This document shows, one piece after another, positions 49,795 to 60,251 of a stretch of DNA of 64,000 nt; the first letter of the stretch is position 1; the number at the start of each line of letters is the position of its first letter. The position numbers and the translations under genes were made by a program. The notes under the pieces were generated by a model. It saw only the letters and a program-made list of their open reading frames with translations, was not told the DNA's origin and did no database searches. Source of the stretch: a virus (Duplodnaviria; Caudoviricetes); IMG/VR virus record IMGVR_UViG_3300028833_000057, positions 192,001 through 256,000 of that record. One strand, 5' to 3'.

Positions 49795-49880
49795 GGAAGT
49801 GTGGCCGAGTGGTTTAAGGCTGCTGATTTGAAATCAGCCGTAGCTAATCACTACCGTGGGTTCGAATCCTACCACTTCCT
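49795..49880 (+). tRNA. tRNA-Ser(TGA)
   Basis: GGAAGTG/CACTTCC acceptor, GCTGA-TT-TGA-AA-TCAGC anticodon arm, long variable arm, TTCGAAT T-loop; no encoded CCA. Confidence 0.92.
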
Positions 49881-49963
49881 CTGAAATGAGTATACCTAAA
49901 AGTATACTCATTTTTTTTTAATAAAATAAAGATATAGCTTTAATGCTATATCTTTATTAATTT

Positions 49964-50914
49964 TTATTCATCAAATATAGAACTGATCTTAGATTTATAT
50001 TCTTCAAGTGCAGATTTAGCTGCATCTTCGGAATTAAATCCAAGGAAAGGTACTAATGAAAAATTTAAAACTGTAATTCTATTCATTATAGACAATGTTT
50101 TAGTACACATTAGTGAAATCTTTTGTACAATTTCTTTAAGAAGGGATACTTGATCAGAGGTGTATTCTTTATTATTACTTAAAGAATTTATAGTAGCATC
50201 CAATCTCTTAACAGATAAGGTAAGTATTTTAAATGATGTATCGGATATATCTTTATATTTATCAAGATATTTATCTAAAAACTCAGGATACTTCGCTGCT
50301 GGTACTCTATTCACATGTACTTTATTGGCTCTACTTATTATACTACTCTTGAGATTATTATTAAAGGCATCATAATGTCTTATAATTTCCTTATGCATAG
50401 AAGATATTTCTTCAGGTTGGAAGCTGCCAACTTTTTCAATGTCTTTTATTAATTCATTTAATTCCTCTGTCATACTTTTAACGTCACCAAATGCTACTTC
50501 GGCTCCATCAGCATAGTATCTAATATCATGAATGCCTTCGTAATATTCATTTTGGTCAGCAGCTTCGTGTGCAGGTTCTGTTTTATCTTCTTTAGATTTT
50601 GTATTATTTCCATCTTTCTTTTTAGAAAGCTTGGCTTTAATTGCATTAATTCTTTTAGATATAAATTCTTTAATTTTATTATATGCAGTTACAATAAAAT
50701 TCTTTATTTTCTTTACAAGTTCTTTAATAAAATTCCATGCAGCCAATGCATACTTTTTTGCATTATCAGTAAAAGCTTCATTAGCTAAAGCATAGTAATT
50801 TGCAGATTCATTACTAACCTTTAATGCACTTTCACTTTTTATAACAGAAGCCAACTGACTATTTAAGTCTTCTGACGATTCAATTATAAATGATAGTATA
50901 TCTGAATATAGCAT
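49964..50914 (-). CDS. putative internal head protein (paralog family)
   Basis: SNESA...LANEA...PAHEAA; clearly paralogous to the 51007 gene. Confidence 0.7.
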   Translation of the reverse strand: MLYSDILSFIIESSEDLNSQLASVIKSESALKVSNESANYYALANEAFTDNAKKYALAAWNFIKELVKKIKNFIVTAYNKIKEFISKRINAIKAKLSKKKDGNNTKSKEDKTEPAHEAADQNEYYEGIHDIRYYADGAEVAFGDVKSMTEELNELIKDIEKVGSFQPEEISSMHKEIIRHYDAFNNNLKSSIISRANKVHVNRVPAAKYPEFLDKYLDKYKDISDTSFKILTLSVKRLDATINSLSNNKEYTSDQVSLLKEIVQKISLMCTKTLSIMNRITVLNFSLVPFLGFNSEDAAKSALEEYKSKISSIFDE

Positions 50915-51006
50915 ATATTTCCTCTTTAAAAATTTATTACAATATAATGTATAAGAATAAAATAAAAATATAGACTCTTGTAGGAGTCTATATTTTTTTT
51001 TTATAA

Positions 51007-51960
51007 TTAATCGGCTAACATAGCCTTAACTTTTTCATCAATCTTATTAGTAACTTCTTCATACTTTTCTTTAGCTGCTTCAGGAGTAGCAAATCCAGAC
51101 ACAGGCATAAGTTCTAGCCTGACGTTAATCATATACTGTCTAACACCATTATACTTAGCTATGAATGAAGTAAACGTCGAGCAAAGTGTCTTAGCCACAG
51201 CAAGATTCTTTTCAGGATAATCTGCCATATTAGAGGCTTTTTGAACACCCTTTTCGAATCCATCAAGCATATGCTGTATAAGCTGATAGCATTTATCTTC
51301 AAGCTTGGTATAACCAGCAATAAGTTTTGAAGCCAAATCAGGATATTGAGAAGCTGGCACTTTCTGTACAGAGGATAACATAGCGTTAGCGTTTCTAAAG
51401 GTCTGATCATAGTACTTAGAAGACTTCATAAGTGCTATATAATTTTCAATACCCTTAAGTTCTTCATCATTCATGTCTTTCATGCCAGCAATGACTTCAC
51501 CAAATTCCATTTCCTTTGCGGTTTCATTCATAACCTTGATGGATTCGTCATAAATTGCCGGATGGGCTACACCGTAATAGTACACGACATCTTCAGCAGC
51601 TTCATGAGCTGGTTCTGCTTTAGCTTCTTCAGGCTTCTGACCTTCAGCAGGAGCACCTGCATCCTTTTTACTAAATCTTGCTCTAATAGCAGCAACACGC
51701 TTTTGGAAGAATTCCTTAACATGCTTAAAAGCATTAAGTATGAATGTTTTAATCTTATTAAGAATGTCCTTAATAAATTTCCAAACTTTACCAGCGTATT
51801 CTCTTACCTTATCGCTAAGACCTTCGTTAGCTAAAGAATAAAAGACTGCAGACTCATTACTAATGCTGGTCGCAAATTTGTATTTCATGACTTCTGCATA
51901 AGTTTTGTTGATGTCTTCTGTAGAAGTTATTGTGTAGAGTAAAATATCTGAATAGGTCAT
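51007..51960 (-). CDS. putative internal head protein (paralog family)
   Basis: SNESA...LANEGL...PAHEAA; late-type motif at 51983. Confidence 0.7.
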   Translation of the reverse strand: MTYSDILLYTITSTEDINKTYAEVMKYKFATSISNESAVFYSLANEGLSDKVREYAGKVWKFIKDILNKIKTFILNAFKHVKEFFQKRVAAIRARFSKKDAGAPAEGQKPEEAKAEPAHEAAEDVVYYYGVAHPAIYDESIKVMNETAKEMEFGEVIAGMKDMNDEELKGIENYIALMKSSKYYDQTFRNANAMLSSVQKVPASQYPDLASKLIAGYTKLEDKCYQLIQHMLDGFEKGVQKASNMADYPEKNLAVAKTLCSTFTSFIAKYNGVRQYMINVRLELMPVSGFATPEAAKEKYEEVTNKIDEKVKAMLAD

Positions 51961-52115
51961 ATAAGAATCCTTTTGTTAAATACAATATAATGTATTGAAA
52001 AATATTAAAAAAGTTATATATTCTTTATGAGTATATAACTTTATTCTTAGTTAATAAAATCTTATTTAGTCGTTATATTTTTCTACATTTTATTGATTCA
52101 GAAGAAGGAGTTTAT

Positions 52116-52820
52116 ATGGAAACTGGTGAAGGATCTTCAGAAGAGAAAATATATACAAAGCCCTCGGGAATACCCGTATATGCATCTATTATTATAGTTA
52201 TATCTATGATAATATCGACATTGTATACTATAAATAATAAGAATAAAGAGATTATCGAATATAAAAAAGAAATAGAGACTATTACTGCAAAATCTATTTC
52301 AGATAGTATATACTTTAAAAAGTCTATTCATGAAAAAGATAGTTTATATCAAGTTCAACTAAAAGAACTTAGAACTGAGTCTGAAAAGAAGTCTGAAAAT
52401 GTGTCTACTTCTAAAACCATTACACGAATTGTATACAAAGATAGCATAAAGGAAATATACAGTGAAAATACGGAAAGTAATGTGGAATATATTAGAGAAA
52501 TTTCTATGCTCCGTGATTCCATTTCTAATCTTGCTGTTCGTGAATATTCTGCTGAAACAGTGTACGTGGAAAAGCTTAGGATTGATACAGTAAGCGTATA
52601 TACGGAAGCTGAAAGTAAGGTAGAAACGAAGATCAATACAAAAAAGAAATCATGGAATATTTATGCTGAAGCTAATGGCTTCATAAATACAGATATAGAT
52701 TTCTCTTATGATATTGAAATAGGTGGGAAAATATTTCTTACCAATAATCTATATGGAAAGATGGGTCTAGGATATAATAGTAAGCCTAGAGCTAATCTAG
52801 GAATTGGAATTGAATTCTAA
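52116..52820 (+). CDS. membrane-anchored coiled-coil protein with beta-strand C-terminus (possible lysis/spanin-like)
   Basis: N-terminal TM helix, coiled coil, alternating beta strands ending ANLGIGIEF. Confidence 0.55.
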   Translation: METGEGSSEEKIYTKPSGIPVYASIIIVISMIISTLYTINNKNKEIIEYKKEIETITAKSISDSIYFKKSIHEKDSLYQVQLKELRTESEKKSENVSTSKTITRIVYKDSIKEIYSENTESNVEYIREISMLRDSISNLAVREYSAETVYVEKLRIDTVSVYTEAESKVETKINTKKKSWNIYAEANGFINTDIDFSYDIEIGGKIFLTNNLYGKMGLGYNSKPRANLGIGIEF

Positions 52821-52829
52821 AAAAAAAAA

Positions 52830-52855
52830 TGCCATGGGAACGAATTCCCATGGCA
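52830..52855 (-). terminator. intrinsic terminator ending the 54036-52857 transcript
   Basis: TGCCATGGGAA-cgaa-TTCCCATGGCA with a T11 tail on the minus strand. Confidence 0.85.
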
Positions 52856-52856
52856 C

Positions 52857-53154
52857 TAAAACCTAGTTATCAATTATTAAAGATACGATGAAACTAAATC
52901 CAAATCGAAATCAAAAACCAGATTCCCAGCAAAAGCAAAAGCAATGATAGGAATTTTGGGAATCTGTAAAGTGGCATCGAAAGTTGGGGTCGAACCAACG
53001 TATCTCCAGCTTACAAAGCTAGTGCTCAACCTACTGAGCTATTTCGATAATTGGGGCCAATCACTTAGCCTTACAGTCATTAAAAGTTGTATCTTTAATA
53101 ATCAAATCTAGCTAACGAAGTAGACAAGCTCCAAGCGTTAGCTCCTAGGTTTTA
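52857..53154 (-). ncRNA. putative structured ncRNA with hexamer repeats and embedded tRNA-Thr
   Basis: Perfect inverted repeats 52857-66/53145-54, 52873-86/53089-102, 52919-28/52957-66 and 53110-17/53136-43. Confidence 0.65.
52972..53048 (-). tRNA. tRNA-Thr(TGT), CCA encoded
   Basis: ATCGAAA/TTTCGAT acceptor, CTAGC-TT-TGT-AA-GCTGG anticodon arm, GGTTCGAC T-loop, 3' GCCA. Confidence 0.85.
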
Positions 53155-53169
53155 TCTCCTTCCCATCCT

Positions 53170-54036
53170 CTAGTAATTCTTCACGAAATTGTAGATATCT
53201 TGAAGATTATCGGGAATGATAATCTTCAGGTCTGCAATTCGCTGAATTTCATTGATGGTTTCCTGCGAATGTTCAGCAGTCTTAGTTTTAAACCAAGAAT
53301 CGTATTCGTTGAACTTCATACGATATTCTGCAAGAAGACGATCGTTCTCCTTCGTCATCTTCTCGTTAATGGAGTGTTTAATTCCATTAAGTTCAGCCTG
53401 GATGCTGCGGAACTGTTCTTGAAGCTGCATGAATACCTTGTCGATCTCTTCCATAGGGATCGATGAAGAGTATACAGCAACAGTGAGAGAAGGAGTTCCC
53501 ACGCCAGATACGTCCTGCTTACCCATCTGAGCTTTTACAGTTTTTCTTGCTCTATTGAAAGAACCATCAGGATGGATAATCTTTCCAATATTTGCAGCTT
53601 GTGCTTCAAGCTCCAAATACTTCTGTCTTTCGCCAACTGACATCTGGTTGATGATATCATCTTCAGAGACCTTCTCAAGATCCGGGCGTTCCATGCACTT
53701 CTCGCCCTTTTCACAGAGCCATCTGAATATATCTCGATTACGAAGATCGGTTTGAGCCTTTTCCTTTGCATCGATCGCTTCGCGCAACCATGCATTGAGA
53801 GCTTTTAACTTACCAACCTTCTCCAATTCGGCAATCTTGGTATTGAGCCATTCAAGGCTCTTACCAGCTTCAACAAGAATTGGATCAGCACCAGCAACCT
53901 TGTAGGTTACATTCACAAATGTGAAGTCGTTCAGTTCTCTTTGAATTCCCTCAAAGATCTCCTTCGACTTGTTTGCTATGAAGTTCGCAGAAGTACTGGT
54001 GAGGCCTTTCTCACCAAAATAAACCTTATTGAACAT
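53170..54036 (-). CDS. coiled-coil protein (GLTSTSAN N-terminal motif)
   Basis: 288 aa, heptad-rich, high-expression codons, AAGGAG RBS, TTATATTAA upstream. Confidence 0.8.
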   Translation of the reverse strand: MFNKVYFGEKGLTSTSANFIANKSKEIFEGIQRELNDFTFVNVTYKVAGADPILVEAGKSLEWLNTKIAELEKVGKLKALNAWLREAIDAKEKAQTDLRNRDIFRWLCEKGEKCMERPDLEKVSEDDIINQMSVGERQKYLELEAQAANIGKIIHPDGSFNRARKTVKAQMGKQDVSGVGTPSLTVAVYSSSIPMEEIDKVFMQLQEQFRSIQAELNGIKHSINEKMTKENDRLLAEYRMKFNEYDSWFKTKTAEHSQETINEIQRIADLKIIIPDNLQDIYNFVKNY

Positions 54037-54088
54037 TTTTACTCCTTGTTAAAGATTAAGTTGAAAAGGTTCAAAATTTAATATAATA

Positions 54089-54559
54089 CTAAAAATTACC
54101 ATCAGCTACTTGAAGGCAAGTATAACCTAATTCGCGCCATTTGGCAACCATAGAGTTACGGTCTTCAAGAATATAGCAAATGTTATATTCAGGATGTTCC
54201 TTTAATAAAGCATTAAGTAATTCAGGCTTAACTTCCGTATCATGGCGAGTATCACCATCTTTACGGAAAAGCATATGTAAAGGAGTATACTGGGTATTTA
54301 CCAAGTGATGCTTCATCCATGCTATAGTCTTTTCCTTAATACTTTCACGCCTACCGGAACAGAATATAATATCATAATAGGTAGATAATTCTTCTACTAA
54401 TTGAATAATTGCTGGAATAGGTTTATCTTCTAAACAAGATTCATAAAATGCATCCCAGTTCGGAGTTTCTAAGTCAGTAATATACTTTTTAGCACGTTCC
54501 GAACAATCGGCTATTGTACCATCGATATCAACGACGATAATGTATTTTTGTTTACTCAT
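54089..54559 (-). CDS. HAD phosphatase (polynucleotide 3'-phosphatase/PNKP-like domain)
   Basis: VDIDGTIAD, SGR, R..D.R.D...K, EDR motifs. Confidence 0.88.
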   Translation of the reverse strand: MSKQKYIIVVDIDGTIADCSERAKKYITDLETPNWDAFYESCLEDKPIPAIIQLVEELSTYYDIIFCSGRRESIKEKTIAWMKHHLVNTQYTPLHMLFRKDGDTRHDTEVKPELLNALLKEHPEYNICYILEDRNSMVAKWRELGYTCLQVADGNF

Positions 54560-54653
54560 GATTTATCTCCATAAGAGTTCAAAATTTAATATAAAAAATA
54601 AATTCTATACAGATAACTAATTAATGAAGAAAAGCCTGCAAAAAGGAGAAATT

Positions 54654-55295
54654 ATGGTTCCCGTAATTATATCGGATATTGATGAAGTAGTATTTAATAT
54701 TACTCCTAAATGGACACAAAGAATTATGCATAATGTTATGCTATTTCAAAGAATTAGAAATTATGAACCTATATTTGCGTATAATAAGAGCTTTGATGAA
54801 TTATATAAATCAACGCAAGAAAGACCAGAATATGATTTATGTAATTGGCTAATGCTTCCTAGACGAGCAAGAGCGCTTGCATATACTTTATATGCAGATG
54901 ATGAAAAATTTTACCACGATCTTCCACTTACAAAATTCGGAACGAATTTACTTTCTGGTGGAAAACATAGAAAGATAATATTCTTATCACATATCTTAGG
55001 CAGACCTTGTGATGAATCTAAAAAAGAAATGATCTTTCATCATTTTAAAAATTGTGATATCGAATATTATACATTATTTAATGGATTCAGTAAAGGTGAT
55101 AAAATAAATGAAATCTGTCCAGATTTCTCTGTATTTATTGATGATCATCCAGATAATATCAAAGATGTTATGGAAAAGTGCGGAGATGAAAAAAAGAAGT
55201 TTCTCTTTCCGTTGAAAGGGTATAATGCTAATATGATAACAGATCTAGAGAAACTTGTAAAGGAAAAGAAGTTAAATCTCGCAGTTATGGATTAG
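54654..55295 (+). CDS. HAD 5'(3')-deoxyribonucleotidase-like protein
   Basis: SDIDEV...K...FIDDHP.N...YN; AAGGAG RBS before ATG 54654. Confidence 0.75.
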   Translation: MVPVIISDIDEVVFNITPKWTQRIMHNVMLFQRIRNYEPIFAYNKSFDELYKSTQERPEYDLCNWLMLPRRARALAYTLYADDEKFYHDLPLTKFGTNLLSGGKHRKIIFLSHILGRPCDESKKEMIFHHFKNCDIEYYTLFNGFSKGDKINEICPDFSVFIDDHPDNIKDVMEKCGDEKKKFLFPLKGYNANMITDLEKLVKEKKLNLAVMD

Positions 55296-55468
55296 TAATT
55301 ACCTTCTGAATAATGAATAATCACAGCAAGAGTAGTTGGACCTATATGACTTTCGCCATTAAGTGGTATGATATTCTTAACGCTGTGATCTTTTATAAAA
55401 TCATTTATCTTTTCTTCCAATTTCTCATATGTAATATCTGAAATAATTTTTACTTTTGTGTGAACCAT
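55292..55468 (-). CDS. small protein (58 aa) not in ORF track
   Basis: MVHTKVKIISDITYEKLEEKINDFIKDHSVKNII...; AGGAG RBS; TTATATTAA at 55496. Confidence 0.6.
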   Translation of the reverse strand: MVHTKVKIISDITYEKLEEKINDFIKDHSVKNIIPLNGESHIGPTTLAVIIHYSEGNY

Positions 55469-55542
55469 TTTTACTCCTATTAGTATACTCTCATCTTAAT
55501 ATAAAAATAAAGAATATCTCAAAGAGATATTCTTTATTAATT

Positions 55543-55998
55543 CTAACTGATTTGGATAGACACTTTATCTTTACACTGGAAATCATCATTTCCCCAATGT
55601 GTTCCAGCAAATAAGCCTAAGAAGAAATCGGCTATAGATGCATGTTTACGATCTTGACCAGAAGCTCTTAAAAGACCTCTAAAGAAGTCATCACATTCTT
55701 CTCTATTAAAGATCTTAAATCCTTTCCATGCATATAGAGCATCATGGACTACACCTGATAGATTATATAATTCATTCTTAGGATCCCAGTTTTTAAGGAA
55801 CCATCTTAGGCATTTGGGAACACTTAGTCCATCACAGATATATCCTCTATCAAAAGTCATAAGCATACGTTTCTTCTTTCCATCTTGCATAAATGGAACC
55901 AAGATCCAAGCTTTATCTTTTAATTTAAACCTATTGTAAGATGTATCCCAATTAAAAAAAGAATACTGTATTTCATTTGTAATAACAGATACTGCCAT
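55543..55998 (-). CDS. DUF1353 family protein
   Basis: GYICDGLSVP...VVHDALY...REECD..F; AAGGAT RBS before ATG 55998. Confidence 0.8.
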   Translation of the reverse strand: MAVSVITNEIQYSFFNWDTSYNRFKLKDKAWILVPFMQDGKKKRMLMTFDRGYICDGLSVPKCLRWFLKNWDPKNELYNLSGVVHDALYAWKGFKIFNREECDDFFRGLLRASGQDRKHASIADFFLGLFAGTHWGNDDFQCKDKVSIQIS

Positions 55999-56082
55999 AA
56001 TATATCCTTTGTTGAACATTCAATATTATGTCAAAAAAGAAAGAGCCAAGTATAAAACTTAGCTCTTAAATTCAACAAGATC

Positions 56083-57174
56083 CTACTCAATATAAGAGAA
56101 TGCCTGTCCTTCACCGAAGTATTTTTCGATGATAGAAACGACATTTTCCTTATTGATGATTTCAAAGTTCTTGCTGGGCACAGTATACCCAGCATGTTCA
56201 TTGAAAATCCTGCGTGCAGTCTCATGCTTAAAGAGTTCTTTATACTCTTCTTGAGCAGCAAACTGCTTACGGATGATATCAATTCGTTCATCCGTAACAT
56301 GTTGTCTGACATTTGCCAAGAGATCCTGCATGAGTGGAAGCACCTCTTTGGGCTTATCACTCATAGACAAGAATGTTGGCAATCTTCCACCCATTTCAAG
56401 CAGGATACCACCAGTCATGTATACAAGACCGCGTTTCTCACGCAGTTCCTGCATAAAGGGCGACTGAAGACCTTCCGAAAGTGCATTGATAGCACTAGCC
56501 AGAAGAAGTGATTCATCTGGATTGCGACACGGTTTGTTTGCAGTAATCCAGATGGTCTTCTGCGGATTTCCGGTTTCCTTCTCAAAGGAAGGTTCACCAG
56601 AAATCCTCTCGATCTGAGGGAAGATATGCGGGTACAGCTCTTCATGGCTTTCACCTTCAAGCATCGAATTCGGTCCAATAGACAAAATCCAAGGCCTGGT
56701 AAAGATCTCCTTACAGTTGTAAAGATAATCTTCGTATTTAAATGCATTCACACCAGACTCAATGCCAGTGCTGCCATAAAAGTCAAAATTATCCCACAAC
56801 ATGTGGTGCAATGCCGCACGGATGGGTTGAGAGAATACCATACCAATTTCTTGGCAAACCGTATTTTTTTCGTTCTCAAAAGTAGCCTTATCCACAGGCT
56901 TTCCATGGATAATAGCCTTCGAGAGTTCCTCAGCCAGCGGCTCAATGTTCTTAGTGAGTCCTGAGAACTGGATCACCATGTTCTCATTGGAGGTATGCGC
57001 CTCCTCACTAATATCACCGGCCTGGAGAGCATCCCTCAAGTGCTTATAATGGTGGCACAAGAGATGTTCCAAGAGATGAGATGTACCCCTGATGCTCTTA
57101 CGCTCACTAAGCGGAGAGCAATTATCGTAGACAAAACAAAGTTTCGAATACGGTAAAGAGTTCTGAATATGCAT
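56083..57174 (-). CDS. M16 family (insulinase-like) zinc peptidase
   Basis: GTSHLLEH, ENEKNTVCQE, S..MQELREKRGLVY. Confidence 0.9.
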   Translation of the reverse strand: MHIQNSLPYSKLCFVYDNCSPLSERKSIRGTSHLLEHLLCHHYKHLRDALQAGDISEEAHTSNENMVIQFSGLTKNIEPLAEELSKAIIHGKPVDKATFENEKNTVCQEIGMVFSQPIRAALHHMLWDNFDFYGSTGIESGVNAFKYEDYLYNCKEIFTRPWILSIGPNSMLEGESHEELYPHIFPQIERISGEPSFEKETGNPQKTIWITANKPCRNPDESLLLASAINALSEGLQSPFMQELREKRGLVYMTGGILLEMGGRLPTFLSMSDKPKEVLPLMQDLLANVRQHVTDERIDIIRKQFAAQEEYKELFKHETARRIFNEHAGYTVPSKNFEIINKENVVSIIEKYFGEGQAFSYIE

Positions 57175-57284
57175 TGATGACTCCTTGTTAAGTTAAACTT
57201 ACATATTCTATTTTATAATATAAAGAATCATCAAAAAAATTAACGGAAGAAAAAATATAAGGCTTTATAGCCTTATATTTCTCT

Positions 57285-57599
57285 TTATATCTCTATTTGT
57301 GAGCCATATAACCAATGAGATTTAAGAATTATTTTTATAAAATTCCATTTCGCAATAGATATGATATCTTTTCCGGTAATATTTTTACGTGACAATAGAT
57401 TATTCTTGGCAAGTTCTAAATTTTTATAAGCATAATTATCTGGATTTTTAGGTTTTTTATTGTTTATTTCATTTTCTAAATTATTCATAAAACGTTCAGC
57501 AAAAATAAAACATTCGAAGCATGCACCTCCAATGATCTTATCTTTGATATATGACTCTTTAAAGTGATCATAAGATTTTTTATCTTTTAGCAGTAGCAT
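57285..57599 (-). CDS. hypothetical protein
   Basis: 104-aa ORF with GAGGA RBS. Confidence 0.65.
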   Translation of the reverse strand: MLLLKDKKSYDHFKESYIKDKIIGGACFECFIFAERFMNNLENEINNKKPKNPDNYAYKNLELAKNNLLSRKNITGKDIISIAKWNFIKIILKSHWLYGSQIEI

Positions 57600-57830
57600 A
57601 ATATCCTCTTATTTAATTATTATTCTATAATTTAATATAATATGCAGGATAAAAATTTTACAAAAAAAAAAAATCTCTATAGCCTTATATGGACTATAGA
57701 GATATTTTTCAGTGTTATGCTACTTTGCACCATTAGTTTAACAGATTATGACACTTGTATGTTTAGGGAATAATTTTGTGTGATAAGGTCTTATTAAACT
57801 AACTAGTTCGTTAAGCTAGATCTACACTAG

Positions 57831-57902
57831 AGCCTAATGAATGATTCGAACACTCGACATATACATTACAAATGTATCGTTCTACCACTGAACTAATTAG
57901 GC
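57831..57902 (-). tRNA. tRNA-Thr(TGT)
   Basis: GCCTAAT/ATTAGGC acceptor, ATACA-TT-TGT-AA-TGTAT anticodon arm. Confidence 0.88.
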
Positions 57903-58101
57903 GGAACCTTAACATAAGTACTGACTAAATCCACCCCTCGGTGCGATAGAGCCATCGTCATCACTGACTACTTCAAGGCCATTCAACTAATCTATATGAA
58001 ATACAAATTAGTCTGACCACTTATGTTAAGGCATTTAAAAGTTATTGGAGATATATCGGTGTGTGTGGGATTGGATCCTTTTTGAAGATATATCCCCAAT
58101 A

Positions 58102-58174
58102 TTGGAATGGTGGGGTTCGAACCCGCGACCCACGCCTTAAAAGGGCGTTGCTCTACCAACTGAGCTACATTCCA
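58102..58174 (-). tRNA. tRNA-Lys(TTT)
   Basis: TGGAATG/CATTCCA acceptor, ACGCC-CT-TTT-AA-GGCGT anticodon arm. Confidence 0.9.
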
Positions 58175-58181
58175 TAGCATA

Positions 58182-58255
58182 TCGGAATAGCCGGATTCGA
58201 ACCGACGACATCTTGCTCCCAAAGCAAGCGCTCTACCAGACTGAGCTACATTCCG
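58182..58255 (-). tRNA. tRNA-Pro(TGG)
   Basis: CGGAATG/TATTCCG acceptor, CTTGC-TT-TGG-GA-GCAAG anticodon arm. Confidence 0.93.
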
Positions 58256-58350
58256 TAAAGAGCTTAGGGATGGAGGAAACAAACCACCCCTAAGCCTTTT
58301 CACCTTTCAAAAGGATACCCTTTCGGATACCAGAATTTAATATAATGATA

Positions 58351-58608
58351 TTAATTATTCATCAACGCATTCTGAAGAACGTAACCTTCAAGTTCCCAGA
58401 CCTTATTTTCAATGCGTTCTCTACAAATCTGCTCACCAAGATTCTGATCATAATTTGCCGGGTCTACACATGAGCTAGACTCACAGATCACAAATCCATT
58501 CGGAAGAGTACAGCAAACAACTGTAGTCTTTTCACCCATCTTAATGCTTTCAAACTTTGAAGCATCCAAGATCGCCTTAATATCTTCTGGCGTAATTCTA
58601 TTCTTCAT
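58351..58608 (-). CDS. Gp49/Gp66-family phage protein
   Basis: TTVVCCTLPNGF...SSCVDPANYD..LG..IC...VWELEGY; AAGGA RBS before ATG 58608. Confidence 0.85.
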   Translation of the reverse strand: MKNRITPEDIKAILDASKFESIKMGEKTTVVCCTLPNGFVICESSSCVDPANYDQNLGEQICRERIENKVWELEGYVLQNALMNN

Positions 58609-58636
58609 ATAGCATCCTTTGTTGAATGAAAAAAAA

Positions 58637-58842
58637 ATATACCCGTATACGGTGGGAATCGAACCCACATTTCCCATCTATAAGGTGAGATTCGAACTCA
58701 CGTGGCGTTGTTAACGTCTTCACGGTTTCCCCCAAGTCAACAGTTTGCTCAAGTCAACTCTGTGTAAGCATAGTATCAGAACTTACAGGGTAATAGGTTT
58801 GCTTGTATCCGGCCTTGCATACTTTACAGTATAGAGGTATAT
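58637..58842 (-). ncRNA. tRNA-like element with two tandem T-arms
   Basis: GTGAG-TTCGAAT-CTCAC and GTGGG-TTCGATT-CCCAC; ends pair (ATATACC/GGTATAT). Confidence 0.55.
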
Positions 58843-58860
58843 TGTAGAATCTAAAAATAA

Positions 58861-58944
58861 TAGCTAAGGTGAGACTTGAACTCACACGATGTTGCCATCA
58901 AGGGATTTTAAGTCCCCAGTGTCTACCACTTCCACCACTCAGCC
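58861..58944 (-). tRNA. tRNA-Leu(TAA)
   Basis: GGGGA-CT-TAA-AA-TCCCT anticodon arm, long variable arm. Confidence 0.92.
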
Positions 58945-58954
58945 ATGTAAGATA

Positions 58955-59191
58955 TTACTTCTTACCTTTCAATTTTAAATTTGCTTTCTGCCAATCTGAA
59001 ACTGTTTTATATTTCTTTTCTTCACTAGACCAATCAGTGCAAGTAAACTGCCAACCTGGATCTCTATCAATTCTTTCTACACATGCATCACAAAATTTAG
59101 TTGTAAATAATGAACCATCTTTTAAAGATTCAGTTTGTACCCTTTTAGGTTCCTTATCAAAGGGACGACAGCATTTACTGCATATGAACAT
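58955..59191 (-). CDS. small Zn-finger-like protein
   Basis: CSKC...CDAC, located between two tRNAs. Confidence 0.6.
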   Translation of the reverse strand: MFICSKCCRPFDKEPKRVQTESLKDGSLFTTKFCDACVERIDRDPGWQFTCTDWSSEEKKYKTVSDWQKANLKLKGKK

Positions 59192-59195
59192 ATAG

Positions 59196-59277
59196 TACCT
59201 AATGTAAGACTCGAACTTACACTTCTTGCGAAACTTGCTCCTAAGGCAAGCGTGTCTACCAATTCCACCAATTAGGC
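59196..59277 (-). tRNA. tRNA-Leu(TAG)
   Basis: CTTGC-CT-TAG-GA-GCAAG anticodon arm, variable arm. Confidence 0.92.
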
Positions 59278-59286
59278 GGGAAATTA

Positions 59287-59493
59287 TTAAACTCTTACAC
59301 CATGCAATGTATTCATACTACACCCTCAAAAGGGTTCTCTTCAAGCATTAGCAACAGTCTTAAGGGAATTCATAAGGGAAGTTGCATTGATTTCCGATTA
59401 GCATCCTACATGAGATCCTTGCAAGGCATTACGGAATTTTATAGTCCGTCCTGTAGTTTCCTTATGTAATCAGTTCGTAGTATTAGAGTTTAA
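59287..59493 (-). ncRNA. putative ~207-nt multi-stem ncRNA
   Basis: Nested inverted repeats (see findings). Confidence 0.6.
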
Positions 59494-59654
59494 ACACTTC
59501 ACAATCGTACCTAACCTATAATCAAAAGGTTTCATCTGTTTAGAAGTTGCGCTAACTTTATGAGGTAAAAGTATATCCATGTACGGGAACATAGATAAAG
59601 ATGGAGTCAAACCATCTAGCGGATACCATTGTGTAAAACTTATTAAAATCTTAG

Positions 59655-59727
59655 CTGCTTCACATGGACTCGAACCATGGACAAGCGGATTAACAGTCCG
59701 CTGCTCTACCAACTGAGCTATGAAGCA
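59655..59727 (-). tRNA. tRNA-Asn(GTT)
   Basis: TGCTTCA/TGAAGCA acceptor, GCGGA-CT-GTT-AA-TCCGC anticodon arm, G73. Confidence 0.94.
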
Positions 59728-59748
59728 ATTTATAATTTGTTATAAAAA

Positions 59749-59822
59749 TGGACAGACTCGGACTTGAACCGAGAACCCGCAGGTTATGAGTCTGCTGCGC
59801 TAACCAATTGTGCCATCTGTCC
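59749..59822 (-). tRNA. tRNA with CAT anticodon (elongator Met or Ile2)
   Basis: GGACAGA/TCTGTCC acceptor, CT-CAT-AA loop; lacks initiator features. Confidence 0.88.
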
Positions 59823-60172
59823 ATTGTGATTCTCTAGAACGTGGATTTCAGGAAAATCTATGACAAATTTTATCTAGAGAATCACTTTATAAAAATTAGT
59901 GGCTAATTGCTGGAGACACAACCTAGGAAGACTTGCAGAATAACTAGGTCACAACAATTAGCCAGAAATGAAAACTGAGTAGAGTAAAACGCAGGATGTA
60001 AGGGATTACTTTCTTAGTTGAATTCTACTCAGTCCTCTTCACACAACTCTAACGAGCAACATATTTGCAACGTCAAAGGAGGTTCATGGAAAATATTTGA
60101 CGATCTTTCTTCGTCAATACTAAATTATAATCGTTCAGCACATTTTGATTACTACCAGGGCCGTACCAGCTG

Positions 60173-60251
60173 TGGATCAACGGAGATTCGAACTCCGAAC
60201 TTTCTCATGCTTTGCAACTTGAGAGTGCTTTACCAATTAAGCTAAAGACCC
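60173..60251 (-). tRNA. non-canonical tRNA-Ala-like (G3:U70, expanded anticodon loop)
   Basis: GGGTC/GATCC-A acceptor, normal D and T arms, 12-nt loop AGTTGCAAAGCA. Confidence 0.6.

Follow-up and report, generated by a model that had tools for sequence, protein, structure and literature searches.

What is a complete tRNA doing inside a folded RNA directly behind a phage protein gene, and do the gene and the RNA belong together? These questions arise from a 64,000-nucleotide (nt) stretch of viral DNA (IMG/VR record IMGVR_UViG_3300028833_000057, positions 192,001 to 256,000; hereafter the window), which carries on its minus strand a gene for a 288-amino-acid (aa) protein, a set of nested stems just past the stop codon, and a terminator. 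A first-pass annotation, made from the letters alone, had read the locus as a candidate undescribed RNA-protein system in which an oligomeric coiled-coil protein binds hexamer repeats in its own 3' RNA. We find that the RNA is a real, conserved and covarying structure that belongs to a large family absent from Rfam, and that gene and RNA are one module, patchily distributed and mobile between contexts.

The minimum-energy fold of positions 52820-53175 (minus strand) gives a nested design that none of 100 shuffled sequences equalled in stability (z = -5.2). From 5' to 3', an outer helix (P1) encloses a hairpin (P2) and a long closing helix (P3), and P3 in turn encloses a small hairpin (P4), the tRNA, and a core hairpin (P5) that runs into a tract of hexamers (Table 1). 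The RNA begins 1-15 nt past the stop codon and finishes at the terminator, for a length of ~250-330 nt in a module of ~1.2 kilobases (kb). The 288-aa open reading frame (ORF), the four perfect inverted repeats, the terminator arms, the tRNA and the 6-nt periodicity all lie exactly where the first-pass annotation had placed them. The terminator, described there as strong, has 13 pairs followed by a T run (at least 10 T at the site 52828-52857) and qualifies as intrinsic, and P3 extends to 17 base pairs (bp) when G-U pairs are counted. We define the module as a family gene followed, within ~100-330 nt on the same strand, by P5, five GNUNUY hexamers and a closing helix, and the window contains each of these parts. 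Only one site of the tract type occurs in the 267.8-kb genome; the module is single-copy there.

The RNA is present behind the gene in all four close relatives, contigs whose proteins share 92, 78, 76 and 61% identity with that of the window. RNAalifold on these five sequences recovered P1, P2, P3, P4, the tRNA cloverleaf, P5 and the terminator, and 22 of 92 pairs across P1-P5 and the tRNA keep pairing through two-sided changes. Among these helices, P1 has one compensatory change (C-G to U-A) and P2 has three pairs with compensatory changes; the cloverleaf is likewise kept through compensatory changes, and the terminator is retained. Nucleotide identity in the RNA region, at 69-86%, is on a par with that in the coding region, at 63-89%. 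The P2 loop motif GGAGCUUGUCU recurs in a more distant setting, a relative in a Bacteroidales metagenome-assembled genome (MAG; L009).

Diverse loci share a constant core: a hairpin, two U-rich hexamers at the 3' end of its loop, and about five hexamers with G at position 1 straight after the stem, which itself differs in sequence in every locus. A detector requiring five G-phased U-rich hexamers abutting a stem of at least 7 bp placed this core in 142 of 171 loci, compared with 8-9 in reverse-complement and shuffled controls. In 73 of 154 loci the stem next to the tract reaches 10 bp or more, versus 4% at random positions, and a closing helix of at least 12 bp stands right behind the fifth hexamer in 44 of 82 non-identical loci, versus ~10% with shuffled partners. 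Several phage clades, and the window too, have a helix of 17-19 bp at this place. The hexamer logo is G1 98%, N2, U3 ~90%, N4, U5 95%, Y6, with positions 2 and 4 free; because the detector score weighted positions 2-6 equally, the contrast among them is informative. Hence the hexamer periodicity first noticed in the window is real, and across the five repeats of the logo it is the most conserved feature of the family.

A covariance model (R1), built from 10 aligned Muribaculaceae cores with P5 and its inner helices P5a and P5b written in, matches 146 of the 171 family loci (81/100 plus 65/71 by source). Each gives one match, always shortly past the gene and on its strand, and no further match appeared in the ~1 megabase searched on both strands. 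For the window the match lies at 52889-52967, with a score of 49.1 bits and E 3.5e-9. Of the 25 loci that R1 missed, several are either truncated or C-rich variants whose motif can still be made out by eye. Although the R1 alignment is fitted to the model and favours pairing, its margin over the slid controls is large: 94.9% of pair cells are paired, compared with 55.8% after shuffling and 35-50% with partners slid. In the same alignment double changes occur at 16 of 16 pairs, and the covariation score is 0.74 against 0.14 in the control. MAFFT followed by RNAalifold on 42 diverse cores returned no structure; there the 5' arms were misaligned.

The loop of P5 has an architecture of its own. 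P5a and P5b flank an internal loop, spotted by eye, with G-A on both strands. In most relatives (for instance L108 3604-3634, L123 and L015) the P5 loop contains a covarying 4-bp helix with the internal loop UGAWG / YGGAG, and inside this G-A motif sits a 2-3-bp helix capped by UUGAYU. The internal loop could be a kink-turn-like or tandem G-A motif. A GA(G)CUUG string resembling it recurs in the first hairpin past the stop codon.

Comparison with Rfam, a check that the first-pass annotation had suggested, yielded no family beyond the embedded tRNA: cmscan with all 4,227 families at E up to 1 returned only tRNA and tmRNA (transfer-messenger RNA) in the window region and 11 diverse loci. The same annotation had named missing stems or repeats in homologues as grounds for abandoning the idea; homologues do carry nested stems and periodic tracts, and these covary strongly.

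The pair is widespread in gut Bacteroidales and their phages. A first protein search returned 169 relatives, and a profile search of 1.84 billion representatives returned 1,178 clusters at 50% identity, 649 of them at E <1e-30. Nearly all members are 280-320 aa long, and none is a fusion. Scanning IMG/VR with the single protein as query gave no match; alignment-based scans succeeded and yielded 80 viral and 80 bacterial loci. The viral loci include many gut contigs of 90-100 kb (crAss-like size) and some jumbo phages. Bacteroidales, chiefly Muribaculaceae and Prevotella, make up most of the bacterial ones, and a few come from bins assigned to Firmicutes or archaea. Carriers deposited as isolate assemblies include Muribaculaceae MF13079 and Isolate-036 and Prevotella sp. 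885. MAGs outside Bacteroidota that contain the module include L123 (binned as Methanobacteriaceae), L126 (Paenibacillus), and L098 and L136 (Erysipelotrichaceae); L123 is AT-rich with phage-like tRNA arrays, and some such loci may be mis-binned phage contigs.

Gene and RNA travel together. Each of five whole bacterial genomes has one R1 match, at the family gene. Among 121 Muribaculaceae-family genomes, the RNA occurs in 8 and the intact gene in the same 8, and in each the RNA follows the gene at a distance of 150-280 nt, on its strand; one 49-aa gene fragment lies elsewhere. Clustering of all neighbouring ORFs found no protein family common across loci except the 288-aa family. Strict co-occurrence and the lack of any other shared protein family identify gene and RNA as one module, and the earlier claim holds that a protein gene and a structured RNA encoded immediately 3' of it form a conserved pair not described before. 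A pattern scan of IMG/VR for motif-only copies was unspecific, with 114 of 116 stretches being simple coding repeats; whether the RNA occurs apart from the gene was addressed instead by the R1 searches of whole genomes. On one complete Muribaculaceae chromosome (L155, G001:C1:2461567-2462433) the family gene has a single in-frame TGA, which recoding, a sequencing error or decay into a pseudogene could explain; the RNA that follows is intact, at 84.9 bits.

The embedded tRNA is well formed. ARAGORN calls it tRNA-Thr(tgt), and Rfam RF00005 scores it at 61.5 bits against a gathering score of 29, in agreement with the CCA-encoding tRNA read there at first pass; the second tRNA-Thr(tgt) reported at that time is also present, at 57830-57902. 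Its acceptor stem has A1-U72, U2-A71 and C3-G70, followed by G73, so that on sequence grounds the threonine acceptor identity of E. coli rules (G1-C72, C2-G71) is lacking. It is the sole one of the genome's 10 tRNAs with an encoded CCA; the other nine lie at 49795-59823 of the window and at genome position 134123. Separately, a stretch at 60173-60251 (minus strand) scores 40.9 bits with the Rfam tRNA model with no ARAGORN call, and could be a tenth tRNA or a tRNA-like element.

Within the jumbo-phage clade every embedded tRNA encodes CCA, as do only 2 of 90 other tRNAs in the loci. The anticodon is UGU in the window and AGU, CAU or UAU in close relatives, and the clade as a whole uses UGU, AGU, CAU, UAU, GCU and ACU, plus one malformed loop. 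All full anticodons end in U36 with A37 next and would read ANN codons. While the anticodon varies, G or N at position 73 and the CCA are constant, and the tRNA body stays. Because one member is a 77-nt 'tRNA-Ser' that has no long variable arm, and because some loops are unreadable by ARAGORN, decoding identity appears not to be the trait that is conserved. CCA is an anti-determinant for RNase Z, and the encoded CCA may keep the tRNA attached to the downstream core.

Beyond the jumbo-phage clade, ARAGORN finds a tRNA inside the RNA in one further case, L088. At L067 a tRNA-Thr(ggt) lies 64 nt past the stop codon, where the detector placed no core, and at L053 a tRNA-like stretch is seen by eye only. 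The crAss-sized clade has a tRNA or an odd tRNA-like unit at most ~30 nt behind the RNA, and bacterial copies are mostly without a tRNA. The tRNA is therefore a clade-specific, optional insert: it is absent, replaced or shifted downstream in most relatives, as anticipated by the first reading of an insertion into a tolerant region. In the crAss-sized gut phage contigs (L015, L019-L031, L042, L044) the tRNA-like unit is 70 nt long, lies ~30 nt after the hexamer tract and directly behind the closing helix, ends in ACACCA, and has an ARAGORN 'anticodon' of two bases (tt). In these loci the protein gene is closely preceded by a tmRNA as well as two or three tRNAs.

The protein itself has a confident AlphaFold2 model, with a predicted local distance difference test (pLDDT) score of 89.5, in which a 75-residue helix is joined by other long helices and by small beta elements. 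Most of the invariant residues are polar (T15, N18, N22, K25, E26, R85, E86, R137, H155, Q206, R210, N217, K271). No relative was found in Pfam, PHROG, PADLOC, NCBIfam or PDB, and 29 relatives are also without a Pfam domain. Searches with Foldseek (PDB and BFVD), VIA-align wide, the ESM Atlas and a PDB profile search led to nothing beyond uncharacterised members of the protein's own family and helical proteins of a generic kind; such negatives do not make the fold new.

Predicted as two copies, the protein reaches an interface score (ipSAE) of 0.42, compared with 0.00 for the best control. In comparison, 20 of 30 solved homomers score that high, as does 1 of 23 monomers; these counts are only roughly valid here as a custom alignment was used. 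Across runs at least 87% of contacts are shared and the partner's pLDDT is at least 84, and the predicted interface is symmetric, with a beta sheet shared between residues 40-45 and 187-192. The models thus indicate that the protein probably forms a symmetric dimer, in keeping with the oligomer first proposed. As for the coiled coil, the long helices and the dimer model speak for it; the label is loose, though fair.

RNA libraries from sheep and bovine rumen, from three studies, hold the locus. A metatranscriptome contig (52863-54176) spans gene and RNA, and its junction with an Illumina adapter at 52863 is a hint that fragments may end preferentially right ahead of the terminator hairpin. As for the two-piece RNA considered in the first-pass annotation, contigs of two small-RNA libraries (52856-53098) run uncut through both tRNA borders; hence some molecules, at least, retain the tRNA in place. 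Contigs also end at 52851-52863 and near 53098, positions that count as no more than hints.

Table 1. Features of the module in the window, listed 5' to 3' along the transcribed strand.
Feature	Position	Strand	Details
TTATATTAA motif	54078-54086	-	42 nt upstream of start codon; candidate phage promoter element
Family protein gene	53170-54036	-	ORF of 288 aa
P1 5' arm (outer helix)	53145-53154	-	10-bp perfect repeat with 52857-66; 15 nt past stop codon
P2 hairpin	53110-53143	-	8 bp, arms 53110-17/53136-43; loop holds GGAGCUUGUCU
P3 5' arm (long closing helix)	53089-53105	-	14-bp perfect repeat 52873-86/53089-102
P4 small hairpin before tRNA	53055-53070	-	RNAalifold columns 100-117, compensatory changes; clade-specific
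Embedded tRNA	52972-53048	-	anticodon UGU, encoded CCA; optional insert
P5 core hairpin	52919-52966	-	10 bp, arms 52919-28/52957-66
Two U-rich hexamers UUGCUUUUGCUUUUGC	52929-52944	-	3' half of P5 loop
Tract of five GNUNUY hexamers	52889-52918	-	single-stranded, joins P5 to P3 3' arm
P3 3' arm	52870-52886	-	inverted repeat and covariation
P1 3' arm	52857-52866	-	inverted repeat and covariation
Intrinsic terminator	52818-52856	-	hairpin of 11-13 bp, arms 52830-40/52845-55, then T run

The source of the window is a rumen jumbo phage, as judged from matches to phiKZ-type internal head proteins, the tRNA cluster in the window, and closest relatives that come from rumen assemblies of sheep, cattle, yak and buffalo; its host is most likely a member of Bacteroidales. 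The record has a G+C content of 33%. The head-protein matches are weak and fall on a paralogue pair that lies side by side at 49964-50914 and 51007-51960 (minus strand; 316 and 317 aa). Megablast of 52000-56000 against phage records found no match. The motif TTATATTAA occurs 13 times in the window, against 5.8 expected, a count reached in 1 of 100 shuffles; sites include 54078, 54586, 55496, 57632 and 58337, mainly on the minus strand and close upstream of gene starts.

Neighbouring genes suggest RNA or tRNA metabolism and regulated expression, and none is universal. Phage copies tend to sit inside or beside tRNA arrays, and 73 of 171 loci have tRNAs no more than 2.5 kb away. A tmRNA adjoins the module as a separate gene in 20 of 171; at the window locus, ARAGORN and Rfam find none. 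Upstream of the 288-aa gene, in the window and in the same arrangement in seven close loci, lies a PNKP-type 3'-phosphatase gene; in the window (54089-54559, minus strand) it encodes a stand-alone HAD domain of 156 aa with neither kinase nor ligase domain. Two further candidates are remote from the module: a PNK-like AAA_33 kinase gene at genome 168177-168461, ~78 kb from the phosphatase gene, and, close to tRNA-Arg, an RNA-ligase match below threshold at genome 131979-132512. Neither a CCA-adding enzyme nor a T4 Rnl1-type ligase was found in the phage genome. In one Bacteroidales MAG clade a PNK-like kinase gene and a Thg1-like gene follow the RNA. At L009 4528-5777 (yak omasum) this pair, an AAA_33 kinase and a protein with a Thg1 C-terminal domain, stands immediately behind the RNA and looks like an RNA 5'-end repair pair, confined to that single clade. 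A divergent WYL-WCX regulator gene lies upstream in 11 bacterial loci, and at one of these, on a complete Muribaculaceae chromosome, the module is an island among housekeeping genes.

How might gene and RNA work together? We favour a self-contained, two-part module in which the protein assembles on its own transcript as a ribonucleoprotein (RNP), a reading to which we assign a probability of about 0.55. Its parts are a gene for a ~290-aa helical, probably dimeric protein and a co-directional non-coding RNA (ncRNA) of ~250-330 nt directly past the stop codon, closed by P3 (and in the window by P1 as well). The closing helix encloses a variable region, P5 with its two U-rich loop hexamers, and ~30 nt of single-stranded tract; in the window the variable region is the small hairpin and the CCA-ended tRNA. 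The periodic hexamers, together with GA(G)CUUG-type loop motifs, may serve as the assembly platform. On the sequence evidence, binding of the hexamer array by the protein is the most economical reading, and the array stands as a candidate site. The recurring tRNA or tRNA-like units may act as processing punctuation, through RNase P, or as a functional tRNA module, and the particle could act in tRNA or RNA metabolism in phage-host conflict.

Several observations count against this assembly model. Fold and profile searches returned generic helical matches and no recognisable RNA-binding fold. The family is acidic, with a median isoelectric point of 5.8, unlike many RNA-coating proteins, which argues against generic RNA coating. 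The dimer score lies exactly at the pass mark and was obtained with a custom alignment. The library data are contigs, which establish presence and continuity rather than ends, strand, abundance or transcription, and their greater depth over the RNA in the small-RNA libraries (14-44 over 52856-53098, versus 3.6-6 further upstream) could come from k-mers pooled from related strains; contig depth being unreliable as well, we do not count it as accumulation. Finally, the RNA-repair neighbours are clade-specific and may be coincidental, a weak link. The original proposal of an undescribed RNA-protein system is partly upheld: the conserved gene-RNA pair, the tRNA insert in a tolerant loop and the predicted self-association speak for it.

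The acidity of the protein also fits a different account, in which the RNA forms no stable complex with it and is instead an independent small RNA or a cis-acting element of the 3' untranslated region (UTR). It might control or stabilise the mRNA ahead of it, or serve as a separate regulator or sponge of a host factor with affinity for U-rich RNA. Host RNA-binding proteins and RNases often act on U-rich single strands, and an RNA that starts 1-15 nt past a stop codon and ends in a terminator is placed as such an element would be. However, a pure cis stabiliser rarely needs ~300 nt and at least five covarying helices, and the RNA is inherited strictly 1:1 with one protein family across 27-100% identity. 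Because that co-inheritance holds across unrelated contexts, it argues for a functional tie of RNA to protein, and we regard the cis or free-standing RNA as a doubtful alternative. An account that keeps the protein-RNA complex and thus overlaps our preferred one adds a specific role: a toxin-antitoxin-like or defence/counter-defence module, in which a protein effector is checked or guided by the co-encoded RNA much as in type III toxin-antitoxin pairs, bacterial copies form a small defence or stress island under the WYL-WCX regulator, and phage copies have been captured. The patchy occurrence (8/121 family genomes), the compact island amid housekeeping genes, the presence in both phages and hosts, and the repeat-bearing RNA adjoining the protein gene are all consistent with this, as is the divergent regulator, which the PADLOC WYL models list as a Cas-associated signalling protein. 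Yet the protein has no real PADLOC match, neither a ToxN/AbiQ-type Pfam match nor another nuclease fold was found, the RNA lies downstream of the gene rather than upstream, and the repeats are 6 nt rather than ~36 nt. We therefore consider this specific role unlikely.

Two simpler accounts of the stems and the tract fare far worse. In the window P1 and P3 bracket a good tRNA, as they would if the stems were a mere processing scaffold for a phage tRNA, with leader and trailer paired into an RNase III-type site like those around rRNAs and with no RNA function of their own. But P5, the hexamers and the closing helix occur without a tRNA in most relatives (among them L009, L013, L034, L062, L116 and L155), and P5 and the tract, not the tRNA, are the most conserved parts. 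We rejected the scaffold on the strength of these tRNA-less homologues and give it next to no weight. The tract might instead encode a small hydrophobic peptide, GNY NUY reading as Val/Ala/Asp/Gly then Leu/Phe/Ile/Val: a stop is impossible in that frame of the tract, and genomes richer in GC show U-to-C shifts at positions 3 and 6 that look like synonymous change. Against this, an in-frame upstream ATG exists in just 23 of 83 loci, in 61 of 83 the hairpin itself contains the nearest in-frame upstream stop, lengths vary erratically, L015 has in-frame stops, and the sole possible start in the window falls inside the tRNA. Loop and tract hexamers are moreover in different frames, and the flanking stem covaries as RNA. 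With no conserved reading frame through the hexamers, the small-ORF reading was rejected, and it too seems scarcely credible.

A more ambitious form of the assembly model would make the pair a new RNP class of gut and rumen Bacteroidales and their phages, in which a dimer reads the GNUNUY array on a dedicated structured RNA that contains CCA-ended tRNA or tRNA-like modules or has them behind it, and the particle works on or with tRNAs; this we think improbable. The particle might there serve as a decoy, a store or a presentation platform in conflicts over tRNA integrity. Effectors that cleave tRNA 3' ends have been reported from Bacteroidales Cas12a3 (bioRxiv 10.64898/2026.01.16.699850), a report that makes such a role plausible and is no evidence for it. 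Even on a cautious view, the analysis gives the databases an RNA family and a protein family that are new and well supported. A functional pairing would be a new protein-RNA system in two much-studied groups, gut Bacteroidales and their crAss-like and jumbo phages. With a small module, a clear code (G1, U3, U5, a 6-nt register) and isolate carriers, work on its binding, structure and phenotype should be feasible without a phage host system.

How does the module compare with known systems? The pair has no described relative, although an anonymous listing among the candidates of PMC10690425 and PMC8040213 is possible, and GOLLD/ROOL, Ro60-YrlA and type III toxin-antitoxin systems each fail their defining tests at the window locus. 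Type III (ToxIN-like) systems also combine a compact protein with a repeat-bearing RNA and occur in phages and bacteria. Their tandem repeats, however, are ~34-36 nt long and lie upstream of a ToxN/AbiQ-type gene, whereas the 6-nt repeats here lie in a large folded downstream RNA, and the protein matches no known toxin in Pfam or PADLOC. Ro60 (Rsr) and YrlA likewise join a protein gene to an adjoining ncRNA that unites protein-binding and tRNA-like modules, and in rsr-yrlA-rtcB operons they sometimes sit beside RNA-repair genes. In contrast, the module protein has no TROVE domain or other Pfam match, its tRNA part is optional, and no YrlA match exists at the locus, the sole weak one in the window overlapping two ordinary tRNAs (58119-58234).

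By description rather than homology, the module also resembles ncRNAs punctuated by a tRNA unit. In MALAT1-mascRNA a tRNA-like unit is fused to an ncRNA, and RNase P and 3' processing set the RNA ends; the T4 tRNA cluster co-encodes small stable RNAs of unassigned role with phage tRNAs. Unlike these, module contigs run through both tRNA borders. GOLLD and ROOL share its setting, being phage-borne structured RNAs of unassigned function near tRNA islands in rumen and gut habitats, and the GOLLD linker region sometimes contains tRNAs (bioRxiv 10.1101/2024.12.08.627333). The module RNA differs in being far smaller (~300 nt), in failing the GOLLD and ROOL Rfam models at E up to 1, and in being found also on bacterial chromosomes away from prophages. 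Descriptions of GOLLD and ROOL present assemblies of RNA alone, for which no protein partner has been identified; the module RNA, by contrast, always stands behind one specific gene. Why phage tRNA clusters hold structured RNAs is a question that dates from the T4 stable RNAs and was revived by GOLLD and ROOL, and the module offers a testable handle on it.

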